Shown here: one piece after another, positions 14,522 to 25,935 of the stretch | Layout of the letters: each line of letters starts with the position of its first letter | Numbering within the stretch: the stretch's first letter is position 1 | NCBI GenBank assembly: GCA_013374855.1 | Contig: CP055308.1 | Span: 102,800 to 166,799 of the forward strand | Source: Candidatus Woesebacteria bacterium | Lineage (GTDB): Bacteria; Patescibacteriota; Microgenomatia; UBA8517 | Reading direction: 5' to 3' | DNA length: 64,000 bases | The notes under the pieces: model-generated | Databases searched by the model: none | What the model was told of the DNA's origin: nothing | The model's input: the letters and a program-made list of their open reading frames with translations, nothing else | Position numbers and translations under genes: made by a program

Positions 14522-14648
14522 CTTTCGGCCTTGGCCTATTTTCGCGGTCTGTTGCCAGACAACTATCGTCGGCGCTTAGGCGTTTCACTTCTGAATTCGA
14601 AATGGGATCAGGTGGTTCCGCCTAGCTCTTAAAGACCGAAAGACTTAA
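14522..14648 (-). rRNA. rrf: 5S ribosomal RNA
   Basis: The reverse complement contains CCACCTGATCCCATTTCGAATTCAGAAGTGAAACGCCTAAGCGCCGA, which is the 5S loop B/C consensus. The terminal helix tctttcgg/ccgaaaga closes it. Confidence 0.8.
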
Positions 14649-15648
14649 AACCAAAATTTGCCAAACGGCAAAGCGAAAGAGAAAAAAGGGAAAACCATTT
14701 TAAGGTCTTCGACCAATTCGCACTGGGTAAGCTTAACTCCTTACGGAGCTTCCACCTCCAGCCGAATAACCTCGTATTCTGCGAGGGGTCTTGTGACGAA
14801 TCCTAATCTTGGGGTGGGCTTCCCGCTTAGATGCTTTCAGCGGTTATCCACAAGGAATGTGGCTACCCGGCATTGCGGCTGACGCCACAACCGGCACACC
14901 AGGGATTCCTCCCTCCTGGTCCTCTCGTACTGAGGAGAGCTCCCCTCAAGATTCAACGCTCCCACCGGATAGAGTCCGAACTGTCTCGCGACGTTCTGAA
15001 CCCAGCTCGCGTACCGCTTTAATGGGCGAACAGACCAACCCTTGGGACCTTCTCCAGCCCCAGGATGCGGTGAGCCGACATCGAGGTAGCGAACCGCACC
15101 GTCGATATGGACTCTCGGGTGCGACTACTCTGTTATCCCCGGGGTAGCTTTTATCCGTTAAGCTCCGTGCCACCCACATAGCAATCGGAGGATCACTAAG
15201 GCCTGCTTTCGCACCTGCTCGGCCCGTCGGCCTCGCAGTCAAGCCAGCTTATGCCTTTACACTTAAAGCGCGGTTTCCATTCGCGCCAAGCTGACCTTTG
15301 CGCCCCTGCGTTACACTTTAGCAGGGTACCGCCCCAGTAAAACTGCCCATCTAGCACTTTCCCCCAACCTGTTTGCAAGGCTGTCAGGTAAGACTTGAAA
15401 TGTTCCAAAGAGAGGTATTACACTGGTGCCTTAAAGGCTCCCTCCTATTCTCGACAGTTGAAACACCCAAATCAATGCCAAACTGCAGTAAAGCTCCACG
15501 GGGTCTTTTTGTCCTGGTGGGAGTAGGCCGCGTCTTCACAGCCATCGCAATTTCGCCGAGTGAAGGCTTAAGACAGTTGTCAGCTCGTTACGCCTTTCGT
15601 GCAGGTCGGAACTTACCCGACAAGGGGCTTCGCTACCGTAGAACAGTT

Positions 15649-16150
15649 CATTTTGTTATCCTGATAAACAGGCCTGTGATTTTACACAGTCTCTACATTT
15701 CTGTAGAGATCGGACTATATTATCTACCTCAAACCTTACAGATTAAGAGGTAGCTTGGCGTATAGTCTCTGAGGATTCCAGAACATCTTGAATCGAATAC
15801 TTTCTTTTGCGTCCCCTATCTTTATTAATTTCCTCTCTAATTTTTAATAATTCGGATAATCCATCTTTTGTAAGATGTTTCTTCTTATACATAATTTTTA
15901 CCGCCCTTTTAAAGAGAGAAAAATTATGTTTTTTGTTACTTGAAAGAAAATTGTATTTTGTAAAAAAAAGGAACAATTTTTTCCTGAAGAGCAGTTGGAT
16001 TTGTAAAATCAGATGTTCTGGTCTTTCCTGCTGATTGTCTCTATTCATCTGATTTTCACTGCCAACGAACATTTAAATCGTACCAGCAGTACAGATGACC
16101 TGCCAAGACTTCTCAGCATACAGCCAAGTTTTACAACTACAATTCTACTT
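15649..16150 (-). other. Group I intron in the 23S rRNA gene at the E. coli U1917 (helix 69) site
   Basis: Exon 1 ends ...GTAACTAT (U) and exon 2 resumes AACTGTTCTACGGTAGCG. The ~502-nt intervening sequence ends in G, is AT-rich, carries an ORF in rRNA sense and has no E. coli counterpart. Confidence 0.7.
15743..16072 (-). CDS. Intron-encoded ORF (109 aa), probably a degenerate or truncated homing-endonuclease-like remnant
   Basis: Basic C-terminus (KHLTKDGLSELLKIREEINKDRGRKRKY) resembling C-terminal regions of LAGLIDADG-type endonucleases. No intact LAGLIDADG motif was found. Confidence 0.35.
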   Translation of the reverse strand: MFVGSENQMNRDNQQERPEHLILQIQLLFRKKLFLFFTKYNFLSSNKKHNFSLFKRAVKIMYKKKHLTKDGLSELLKIREEINKDRGRKRKYSIQDVLESSETIRQATS

Positions 16151-24230: not shown

Positions 24231-24440
24231 CAAAAATAACACAACAGAAAATAGCCAATTTTTTTATTACCAGTCGAAATTTGAGGTTCTACCGCAAAGA
24301 CCTAAAACTTAAAATTTAGTTTTCAAAAGACTGTTAAACACAATTGAAAATTCAATACCCAGATTATGGCTGGAAGAGGTGCCCCGTTTTTTAAAAGAAA
24401 AACGGCGACATTAAAACTTGGGTGTATAAACACTCCTTAG

Positions 24441-25935
24441 AAAGGAGGTGATCCATCCGCCCCTTCCAGGACGGATACCTTGTTACGACTTAATCCTCAT
24501 CGCTGAGTTCACCTTCCCCCAAGAACACTTGAGGTTCGGGTGCCCCCAACTTTGCTGACTTGACGGGCGGTGTGTACAAGACCTGAGAACGTATTCACCG
24601 GAGCTTGGCTGATCTCCGATTACTACCAATTCCGCGTTCATGAGGGCGGGTTTCAGCCCTCAATCCCCACTGAGACGCTGTTTGATGGGATTAGCTCCGC
24701 CTTACGGCTTGGCAACCCATTGTTAAGCGCCATTGTAGCATGTGTGTCGCCCCGGACATAAGGGCCATGCTGACTTGACGTCGTCCCCACTTCCTCTGAG
24801 ATAAACTCAGCAGTCCCGAATGAACATCTAACATTCGGCAGGGGTTGCGCTCGTTACCCCACTGAAGGGAACACCCCACGGCACGAGCTGACGACAGCCA
24901 TGCAACACCTGTGCTAGGTTTTCAAAAAATTTGAAATCGCTTTCCATCTCTGGAAAACTAAATGCCTAGCATGTCAAACCCGGGTAAGGTTCCTTCGGTT
25001 CGTCTCGAATTAAACCACATGCTCCACTGGTTGTGCAGGTCCCCGTCAATTCCTTTGAGTTTTAGCCTTGCGGCCGTACTCCCCAGGCGGCTCGCTTAAC
25101 GCGTTAGCTTACACCCCGCACCAAAAGGCACAGGGCTAGCGAGCATCGTTTACGGCTAGGACTACAGGGGTCTCTAATCCCTTTCGCTCCCCTAGCTTTC
25201 GTGTCTCAGCGTCAAGATATCCCCAGCTGTCTGCCTTCGCCCTTGGCGTTCCTTATCATATCAACGGATTTCACCCCTACATGATAAGTTCCAACAGCCC
25301 CTAGATACTTCGATTCCGGCAGTATTGCGCCCATTCCTGAGGTTGAGCCCCAGTTTTTAAAGCGCAACTTACCGAAACGCCTACACACGCTTTACGCCCA
25401 GTAAATCCGGGTAACGCTCGCACCCTACGTCTTACCGCAGCTGCTGGCACGTAGTTAGCGGGTGCTTATTCGCCAAGAGGTCTCCCTCTTGGCAAAAGTG
25501 GTTTACGACCCTAAGGCCTTCATCCCACACGCGGCGTCGCGGCGTCAGGCTTTCGCCCATTGCGCACGATTCCCAGTTGCTGCCACCCGTAGGTGTATGG
25601 GCCGTGTCTCAGTCCCATTCTGGGGGGTCAGACTCTCATCTCCCCTAACCGTCGTAGCCTTGGTAGGCCATTACCCCACCAACTAGCTGATGGTGAGCAA
25701 GCCCCTCCACAAGCGGGCAGTTACGCCCTTTACTCATGGCAAGCATGAGATTATGCGGTATTAGCCTGCCTTTCGGCAGGGTATTCCTCACTTGTGGGTA
25801 GGTTCTTACTTGTTACTCAGCCGTTCGCGACTCCCTGAACCAGAATGCAAGCACTCAAGTTCAGGGCGTTCCACTTGCATGCTTAAGGCACGCCGCTAGC
25901 GTTCACCCTGGGCCAGGATCAAACCCTCAAAAAGT
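24441..25935 (-). rRNA. rrs: 16S ribosomal RNA (~1.5 kb, no insertion evident)
   Basis: The plus strand carries the reverse complement of the 3' end (AAAGGAGGTGATCCATCCGCC, CCTTGTTACGACTT) and of the 5' end (CTGGGCCAGGATCAAACCCTC). Internal 530-loop and 1492 regions are recognisable. Confidence 0.9.

Follow-up and report, generated by a model that had tools for sequence, protein, structure and literature searches.

The 16S and 23S–5S rRNA genes of Candidatus Woesebacteria probably form two independent units left by an ancient, in-place split of the operon

A 64,000-nt stretch of contig CP055308.1 from a Candidatus Woesebacteria bacterium (assembly GCA_013374855.1, positions 102,800 to 166,799 of the forward strand; hereafter the window) carries its 16S rRNA gene 6164 nt away from its 23S and 5S rRNA genes, with protein-coding DNA in between. 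We conclude that the rRNA operon has very probably undergone a real and ancient split, a trait characteristic of Candidatus Woesebacteria (Microgenomates, in the Patescibacteria or candidate phyla radiation, CPR), and that the two halves probably behave as independent units. The core of the locus, with RNA genes called by Rfam at gathering thresholds and by ARAGORN, is as follows.

14523-14640, minus strand: 5S rRNA (Rfam RF00001, 70.1 bits).
14697-18276, minus strand: 23S rRNA, containing an intron and an expansion segment (Rfam RF02541, 2367.7 bits over model positions 1-2925).
18413-18487, minus strand: tRNA-Ala(UGC), first gene of the 23S unit (ARAGORN and Rfam).
18787-18859, plus strand: tRNA-Ile(GAU), inverted relative to the rRNA genes (ARAGORN).
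19423-20786, plus strand: frameshifted copy of a 448-aa membrane-anchored protein family (open reading frames (ORFs) 19423-19875 and 20061-20786).
20957-21943, minus strand: galE, UDP-glucose 4-epimerase (TIGR01179, 378 bits against a cutoff of 262).
22044-24230, plus strand: ATPase of the VirD4/TraG-like coupling-protein type, 728 aa, antisense to the rRNA genes (N-terminal DUF8128, then TrwB_AAD_bind, DUF87 and TraG-D_C).
24441-25934, minus strand: 16S rRNA, without insertions (Rfam RF00177, 1366 bits, full model).

An earlier reading of the DNA made from its letters alone (the sequence-only reading) had described a contiguous tRNA-Ala–23S–5S block on the minus strand at about 14.5-18.5 kb, a 16S gene on the same strand about 6 kb upstream, and between them a frameshifted gene, galE on the minus strand and a TraG-like ATPase gene on the opposite strand, with the nearby tRNA-Ile(GAU) also on the opposite strand. 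Every one of these features was recovered: the RNA genes lie within 1-2 nt of where that reading had put them, the 16S 3′ end is separated from the 23S 5′ end by the 6164 nt given above, and the intervening protein genes are supported by ORF, homologue and domain evidence. Its broader claim, that the rRNA genes are unlinked and that 16S and 23S–5S have their own flanks, also held, each half having its own promoter-like site and its own leader–trailer pairing.

In the reading that we favour, the ancestral order 16S, tRNA-Ile, tRNA-Ala, 23S, 5S would still be legible on the minus strand, and the former spacer would now hold a conserved ATPase gene on the opposite strand together with filler that varies by lineage (in the window, galE, the frameshifted paralogue and the inverted tRNA-Ile). 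Unit 1 would consist of the 16S gene alone, transcribed from a promoter at 26186-26159 through a leader with a hairpin and a boxA-like box and enclosed by a leader–trailer helix of about 40 bp. Unit 2 would comprise tRNA-Ala, the 23S gene with its intron, 5S and probably an rpsA-like gene, transcribed from a promoter at 18729-18700 through a structured leader of about 130 nt that ends in a terminator-like hairpin and a boxA-like box, with a 23S helix of its own. Several lines of evidence bear on this reading.

First, the arrangement is not a product of assembly. rRNA genes are classic break and join points in metagenome assemblies, and many related short contigs end within the rRNA genes that flank the ATPase gene, so that two contigs, one ending in 16S and the other in 23S, might have been falsely joined within 18.3-24.4 kb while the true operon is linked. 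We give such a misjoin a negligible probability. An independent re-assembly of a public run (L087, the Logan re-assembly of SRR6186653; loci from other genomes are likewise given by L numbers) is 100% identical to 18152-23050, a stretch that begins at the 5′ end of the 23S gene, takes in both tRNA genes, the pseudogene (frameshift included) and galE, and ends inside the ATPase gene. Contigs from other runs (L082-L084; 16S 97-98% and ATPase 90% identical) reach from 23S to 16S without a break, in the order 23S, tRNA-Ala (minus), tRNA-Ile (plus), galE (minus), ATPase (plus) and 16S (minus), with a gap of 4252 nt. The layout is also common to all 15 well-flanked loci described below, which come from different species and include chromosome-level assemblies, and the leader and trailer strands match each other at each rRNA gene, a property that a chimeric join would not create. 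For practical purposes, the identical re-assembly and the conserved synteny together exclude misassembly across 18.3-24.5 kb, the interval in which the sequence-only reading had asked for read and assembly support.

Second, the layout is shared across the lineage. Searching a GTDB set with the ATPase protein gave 80 loci from different species, onto which we mapped rRNA genes, tRNA genes and neighbouring proteins; by their named protein homologues, these loci belong to Candidatus Woesebacteria or Microgenomates. For synteny counts we used loci whose ATPase is at least 56% identical and that extend more than 3 kb on one side or more than 9 kb on both. The 23S gene or tRNA-Ala was on the minus strand in 34 of the 38 loci with more than 3 kb of upstream flank, and 16S was on the minus strand in 30 of the 34 whose downstream flank exceeds 3 kb. 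Both rRNA units were present in 15/15 loci with more than 9 kb on each side, including the chromosome-level CP055307.1 and OY970314.1. In relatives, 16S and 23S are 2908-14757 nt apart (median 5805, n = 27).

The genes recur in one order: radA, S1, 5S, 23S and tRNA-Ala on the minus strand, variable DNA, tRNA-Ile(GAU), the ATPase gene on the plus strand, variable DNA again, and 16S on the minus strand. More than 50 species, at 56-90% protein identity, have the ATPase gene in this place and orientation, which indicates that its insertion is ancient and that it is a core gene. Around it, other elements move. tRNA-Ala and the ATPase gene always flank tRNA-Ile(GAU), which is usually no more than about 400 nt from the start of the ATPase gene and is found equally often on the rRNA strand and on the opposite strand (31 loci each, 62 in total), so its inversion in the window is a common state; an inverted-repeat scan found no meaningful repeats around this flip-prone gene. 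galE stands beside the ATPase gene only in the closest relatives (L081-L085), and the frameshifted gene is absent even from L082-L084, where 276 nt take the place of the 2.1 kb found in the window. A 429-aa gene of L081 was considered as an orthologue of the frameshifted gene and rejected, as the two are not orthologous.

The identity of the conserved gene raises a different explanation, namely that a TraG/VirD4-like gene marks an integrative conjugative element that recently entered the spacer of this one genome. The ATPase has coupling-protein domains (PF10412 at 34.2 bits, cutoff 20.5; PF12696 at 36.1 bits, cutoff 22) and a Walker A motif, GKTGTGKST; the neighbouring filler, galE and the paralogue copy, is lineage-specific; and tRNA genes are typical integration sites. 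The positional conservation of the gene across more than 50 species speaks against a recent arrival, as does the GC content of the gap, which equals that of the surrounding genome. The direct neighbours of the ATPase gene are galE and 16S, and among the genes examined, covering about 11-29 kb of the window, there is no relaxase, integrase or VirB4. Orphan VirD4-like genes are moreover the rule in Patescibacteria, where 5,713 homologues were counted and few lie near virB4 (PMC12102498). A recent mobile insertion therefore seems to us very improbable. The protein scores below all curated NCBIfam equivalog cutoffs (VirD4-like CD1115, TraD and CedD; 35-42 bits against 250-600) and is better named a VirD4-like ATPase with an N-terminal DUF8128 domain.

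Third, each half has its own conserved promoter-like site, and fourth, each rRNA has flanks that pair with each other. The elements concerned are these.

18729-18700, minus strand: predicted promoter of the tRNA-Ala–23S–5S unit, TTGACT-18-TATAAT (11/12 matches).
26186-26159, minus strand: predicted promoter of the 16S unit, TTGACT-16-TAGAAT with an extended -10 TG (sigma-70-type match).
14641-14696, minus strand: 23S trailer strand of the leader–trailer helix (duplex with 18277-18412).
18277-18330, minus strand: 23S leader strand of the processing helix (duplex prediction).
24331-24376, minus strand: 16S trailer strand of the leader–trailer helix (duplex prediction).
26013-26054, minus strand: 16S leader strand, including the conserved block AUGGCUGGGAG (duplex prediction and conservation).

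The site ahead of tRNA-Ala is the best sigma-70-type match anywhere in 13-27.5 kb. Its two hexamers show no change among the window, L082 and L081, although the DNA around them has diverged. A promoter matching at 11/12 or better occurs in 56% of tRNA-Ala leaders, compared with 4% on the opposite strand and 0.7% in shuffled sequences, and of the 22 tRNA-Ala leaders with a recognisable hairpin, 20 have an 11-12/12 promoter 96-129 nt upstream of that hairpin. The 16S-unit promoter is common to the window, L081 and L014; at a threshold of at least 10/12, 64% of 16S leaders have one, compared with 4% on the opposite strand and 13% of shuffles. Both sites probably fire, which would place transcript starts near 18693 and 26152.

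The flanks of 16S are predicted to form a duplex of -77.3 kcal/mol (z -6.9), with a helix of about 40 bp, and those of 23S one of -55.2 kcal/mol (z -7.4), whereas the cross pairings between 16S and 23S flanks are not significant (z -2.6 and -0.3). In relatives, the own pairings have median z-scores of -2.7 and -3.9 and the cross pairings -0.4 and -1.6. The leader–trailer helix is essential for biogenesis of the 30S subunit in E. coli (PMC10250234). As each rRNA here closes its own helix, the two could be processed with no need of co-transcription, presumably by separate RNase III cuts.

Fifth, both units begin with a leader of the same design, in which a GC-rich hairpin followed by a U-run precedes a boxA-like box by about 5-20 nt.

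18583-18563, minus strand: terminator-like hairpin of the 23S unit in boxB position, AACCGGC-TCAAAAG-GCCGGTT followed by a T-run at 18562-18557 (all 7 pairs covary).
18556-18544, minus strand: boxA-like box of the 23S unit, TGCACTTTAAACA (10/13 against the E. coli boxA consensus).
26094-26075, minus strand: hairpin of the 16S leader, also terminator-like, AGCCCACC-GTCT-GGTGGGTT with a T-run after it at 26074-26070 (compensatory changes).
26059-26047, minus strand: boxA-like box of the 16S unit, GGCACCTTAACAG (block G[CT][AT]C[TC]TT[GA]ACA conserved in six species).

The hairpin before tRNA-Ala is present in 26/50 relatives on the rRNA strand and in 7/50 on the opposite strand, and RNAalifold finds compensatory changes at all 7 of its pairs. 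In many loci no more than 19-55 nt separate the hairpin from the tRNA, too short a distance for a promoter to fit in between, and any polymerase transcribing the unit has to traverse the hairpin. The boxA-like box that follows contains a block, TGCACTTTRA, that is invariant in the window, L082 and L081. In the 16S leader, the hairpin is found in 11/26 relatives on the rRNA strand and in 2/26 on the opposite strand. The sequence-only reading had taken this hairpin for the terminator of the RNA recognition motif (RRM) gene upstream. That assignment is too simple: the hairpin lies past the predicted 16S promoter, just before the boxA-like box, and is kept where the upstream gene is a different one, which makes it part of the 16S leader. 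Matches to E. coli boxA at 10/13 or better occur in 48% of 16S leaders and in 8% of shuffles. The leader hairpins would have to be read through, plausibly with the aid of Nus factors at boxA. At permissive thresholds, Rfam found no known RNA family in either leader, and identities as 6S RNA, signal recognition particle RNA, T-box or riboswitch were rejected for want of a match. The combination of leader motif and hairpin does not recur elsewhere in the window, which gives no sign of a regulon.

These features bear on whether the distant genes might still be one operon, with a polymerase from the 16S promoter crossing the 6-kb gap and supplying much of the 23S and 5S rRNA, and with the promoter at 18729-18700 as an auxiliary. 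The order of 16S before 23S and their shared orientation are kept in all relatives, galE is co-oriented with the rRNA genes, no convincing intrinsic terminator lies past the 16S trailer, and polymerase modified by Nus factors at boxA is highly processive (PMC10250234). Such a transcript would, however, have to cross a gap that varies between 2.9 and 14.8 kb with changing gene content, collide head-on with a conserved 2.2-kb ATPase gene, to which read-through in antisense is unlikely, and pass the terminator-like hairpin ahead of tRNA-Ala. Also against it are the near-consensus promoter found in 20 of 22 hairpin-bearing tRNA-Ala leaders and the separate helix closed by each rRNA. On this evidence we regard a single operon as improbable. 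The sequence-only reading had gone further and declared a shared 16S–23S transcript impossible. Unlikely is as far as the evidence goes, with 16S still upstream of 23S in the same orientation and no convincing terminator after its trailer.

Several points weigh against our preferred reading, an ancient split into two independent units. Start sites, read-through and termination are all deduced from sequence. The lack of a clear intrinsic terminator after the 16S trailer means that some read-through towards the 23S unit is possible. The two boxA-like boxes of the window match the E. coli consensus at only 9-10/13, and a scan of relatives' tRNA-Ala leaders with E. coli boxA gave 10% against 5% in shuffles, no significant enrichment; that scan was uninformative, and the boxA assignment in the 23S unit draws only on position and on conservation in three close genomes. 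The boxA-like block of relatives' 16S leaders contains TTGACA, which in some of them could instead be a -35 element. The processing-helix signal is weaker in relatives than in the window, in part because gene ends there were set by BLAST. With regard to distribution, L021, L049, L053 and L011 lack one or both rRNA genes although they are well flanked, and most loci whose ATPase is only about 50% identical have no neighbouring rRNA genes. The association thus characterises a single clade, and not the ATPase family as a whole, and does not cover every ATPase homologue.

Both leaders also contain a segment upstream of the terminator-like hairpin that could compete with it, and the leader of the 23S unit contains a short ORF.

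18688-18676, minus strand: segment A, UUUUGAGCAGGUU, able to base-pair with the loop and 5′ arm of the terminator-like hairpin; a small 5′ hairpin includes it as well (inverted-repeat scan).
18664-18611, minus strand: short ORF of 17 codons, MKAIKYITKNLRPFCGV, containing a central hairpin at 18615-18632 (ATG invariant in 20 species).
26115-26109, minus strand: CCAGACG, complementary to CGUCUGG of the 16S leader hairpin, a candidate antiterminator strand (permutation test).

Segment A lies just past the predicted start site. In relatives, the upstream segment that pairs best is found at a nearly constant 71-102 nt from the hairpin, and the two change together in sequence. Alignment with MAFFT followed by RNAalifold gave back the terminator hairpin only; because segment A changes too fast to align, we used an alignment-free permutation test, in which the segment before the leader ATG was paired either with the hairpin of its own species or with that of a permuted species (20 species, 20,000 permutations). 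Pairing with the own hairpin averaged -12.4 kcal/mol, compared with -8.4 ± 0.6 for permuted hairpins, and none of the 20,000 permutations reached the observed value (p <= 5e-5). The result was unchanged when only one species per close group was kept (n = 14), and the control region between the ATG and the hairpin gave p = 0.39. On average, the segment-A duplex takes 5.3 bp of the 5′ arm of the terminator. A pure loop–loop kissing interaction is the less likely form of the contact, as the pairing invades the stem. In 15/20 leaders, segment A also falls within a small local hairpin. Its local hairpin, its pairing with the downstream arm and the terminator would be three mutually exclusive states, the layout of an attenuator.

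A similar relation holds in the 16S leader, where the hairpin pairs with the 45 nt upstream at -16.1 compared with -13.3 ± 0.9 for permutations (p ~ 0.001; control region p = 0.54). The paired strands differ between species: CCAGACG/CGUCUGG in the window, CAGAAGG/CCUUCUG in L014 and CCAGAUGGC/GCCAUCUGG in L002. Single-locus duplex z-scores for the antiterminator pairing are weak (median about -1.1), and the case for an antiterminator is made by its constant position and by the permutation test. Together these results suggest, at the level of sequence, a terminator/antiterminator switch on each of the split units.

As for the short ORF, the frame opened by the leader ATG has a median of 17 codons and reaches at least 13 codons in 18/20 species, compared with 7/20 in the +2 frame, and its stop lies 22-33 nt before the hairpin in 17/20. 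A Shine–Dalgarno sequence is not consistently present across the 20 species, and the peptides show no conservation. Where 16S leaders have the same AUGAGA motif, the frame that it opens is only 2-5 codons long. The evidence hints at a leader peptide but falls short of establishing one.

One tentative model, which we think possible though more probably wrong than right, is that the leaders act as three-state switches that give ribosomes feedback on rRNA synthesis and so keep the separated units in balance. Each half would have acquired or kept its leader after the split, with the small 5′ hairpin, the antiterminator pairing and the terminator hairpin as competing folds. In the 23S unit, ribosomes that load at the invariant AUG of the short ORF (about 17 codons) would mask the antiterminator strand, so that abundant free ribosomes would favour termination and scarce ribosomes read-through. 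Attenuators, for example in the leaders of amino-acid biosynthesis operons, likewise comprise a promoter, a small 5′ hairpin, a segment with two pairing partners, a short ORF, a terminator and then the structural genes. The leaders described here differ in that they precede rRNA and tRNA genes, that the short ORF lies between the competing segments and does not overlap the first, and that they have no recognisable regulatory codons or ligand-binding fold.

The 23S gene of unit 2 holds two insertions. At 3580 nt it is 655 nt longer than the 2925-position model, mainly on account of an intron, overlooked in the sequence-only reading, and an 89-nt expansion.

16150-15649, minus strand: 502-nt group I intron after U1917 (E. 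coli numbering, loop of helix 69; a 503-nt insertion in the large-subunit rRNA alignment).
16281-16193, minus strand: 89-nt expansion segment in 23S domain IV at model position ~1897 (~E. coli 1870; large-subunit rRNA alignment).

The intron matches Rfam RF00028 (Intron_gpI) at 39 bits (E 3e-8 in a local search), below the gathering score of 50, and its fold has a z-score of -6.3. P1 can be drawn between the exon end AACUAU and intron GUAGUU, with a U.G pair at the 5′ splice site; the intron ends in AAAAUG, with G as its last base, and the exon restarts with AACUGUUC, restoring helix 69. The intron would presumably be self-splicing. Homologous introns occupy the same site in L010, L007 and L072, and the close relative L081 has none, a patchy presence as expected for a mobile element. 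Site 1917 of the 23S gene is a listed insertion site in CPR bacteria, usually with a LAGLIDADG_1 homing endonuclease (Tsurumaki et al. 2024, PMC11270868). The window's intron agrees with those of that survey in its exact position and its patchiness among relatives, and differs in that its 502 nt show no recognisable homing endonuclease signature; we found no support for the intron ORF as a remnant of one. The expansion lies about 45 positions upstream of the intron insertion, and nothing similar to it was found in the related loci fetched.

Three further protein genes border the units or relate to the filler.

13382-14485, minus strand: rpsA-like gene with four S1 domains (Pfam S1 x4; NCBIfam S1 models match below their cutoffs).
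26206-26469, minus strand: gene for an RRM-type RNA-binding protein, directly upstream of the 16S unit (Pfam RRM_1).
27435-28781, plus strand: paralogue of the frameshifted gene, intact and 448 aa long (ORF 27435-28778), lying on the far side of 16S (72-75% amino-acid and 76% nucleotide identity).

The rpsA-like gene begins 37 nt past 5S on the same strand, with no terminator between them, and a terminator-like hairpin lies 3′ of it at 13376-13355. The adjacency of radA, S1, 5S and 23S is kept in relatives. The gene is probably the last of the 23S unit, which would end at that hairpin, and the arrangement suggests that a ribosomal-protein-like gene is cotranscribed with 23S and 5S. At the other end of the locus, the adjacency of the RRM gene and 16S recurs in L081 and L048; that its product binds the leader is pure speculation, although it makes a candidate.

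In the frameshifted gene, the second ORF can be extended upstream in frame by about 96 codons, which include no start codon and overlap the end of the first ORF. A conceptual fusion of both ORFs aligns over 98-100% of its length with intact proteins of 445-448 aa at 62-66% identity. By tblastn, the frame switches at ~19786-19790 within GGTGTGTCC, at a GTGTGT run with one extra GT, and deleting one GT brings back G-V-R-A, as in the homologues. The intact paralogue is identical (100%) to a public protein, P0122, on an 802,554-bp contig. The family has an N-terminal membrane helix and no match in Pfam or NCBIfam.

Some observations stand apart from the argument. The 16S gene, free of insertions in the window, spans 2.2-2.6 kb with large insertions in L004, L008, L025, L030, L036, L050, L052, L058 and L059. 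Public metagenome-assembled genomes with the Woesebacteria-type locus (L005, L006, L009, L011, L026, L059 and others) are labelled 'uncultured Gammaproteobacteria', 'Methanosarcinales archaeon', 'Alphaproteobacteria' or 'Nevskiaceae'; either these labels are probably wrong or the bins contaminated. Across the whole window (1-64000), strand asymmetry is strong and uniform, with negative GC skew in nearly all 1-kb bins (cumulative -10.5) and mostly positive AT skew. The window also has a tRNA-Ile with anticodon UAU, unusual in bacteria, at 59487-59561 (minus) and two tRNA genes with anticodon CAU, at 56749-56822 (minus) and 56982-57052 (plus).

Unlinked rRNA genes with opposite-strand genes between them are already known for CPR bacteria, and the layout is lineage-wide and not a peculiarity of this genome. 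Brewer et al. 2019/2020 define unlinked genes as more than 1500 bp apart and place Patescibacteria among the exclusively unlinked clades (10.1101/705046). Lui et al. 2021 found 27 of 34 circularised CPR genomes to be unlinked, and their class D comprises genes more than 2000 bp apart on the same strand with one or more opposite-strand genes between (PMC8172020). At 6164 nt, the window is unlinked by the definition of Brewer et al., and with the ATPase gene, the pseudogene and tRNA-Ile on the plus strand it belongs to class D. It resembles the published cases in separation (beyond 1500-2000 bp), in the shared strand of its rRNA genes, in the opposite-strand gene between them, in the small genome with a single rRNA copy and in being conserved and clade-specific, and differs in nothing essential. 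Those surveys sort loci by distance and strand, and the contents of the gap are not described in them. The window adds a conserved core to the filler, a VirD4-like ATPase gene beside tRNA-Ile, and a conserved promoter and leader for each half. In the literature searched, we found no description of the class-wide position of the ATPase gene in the spacer or of covarying terminator/antiterminator leaders, and the covariation of leader hairpin and upstream segment on both units may be new.

The classical split operons, in Helicobacter pylori (PMC6582327) and in Buchnera, Wolbachia, Borrelia and Mycoplasma (cited in PMC8172020), likewise consist of two units, 16S alone and 23S–5S, each with its own complementary flanks. 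Their halves, however, typically lie tens to hundreds of kilobases apart (mean of about 410 kb in Brewer et al.), compared with 3-15 kb here. The Woesebacteria locus looks like an operon that was split in place by insertion and not dispersed, with the ancestral order and orientation kept. In E. coli, one boxB–boxA–boxC set follows the 16S promoter and another precedes 23S (PMC10250234); in the window, too, a hairpin, a boxA-like box and then the 5′ strand of the leader–trailer helix come before both 16S and 23S. Unlike in E. coli, the second set here has its own predicted promoter and lies upstream of tRNA-Ala, the match to boxA is partial, and the hairpin in boxB position, with its high GC content and the U-run after it, resembles an intrinsic terminator and covaries with an upstream segment.

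In one respect, this locus is one more case of a published CPR pattern, and its practical relevance is modest: amplicon methods that span 16S, the internal transcribed spacer and 23S will miss Woesebacteria, and binning and assembly pipelines should not flag the layout as an error. In another, an old in-place split with the same antisense ATPase gene across a class offers a clean system in which to study how an operon is dismantled without loss of the 16S:23S balance. In both leaders, a terminator-like hairpin and a pairing that competes with it are under selection. If they form a true switch, they would add an undescribed layer to the control of rRNA transcription in bacteria about whose growth control almost nothing is known.

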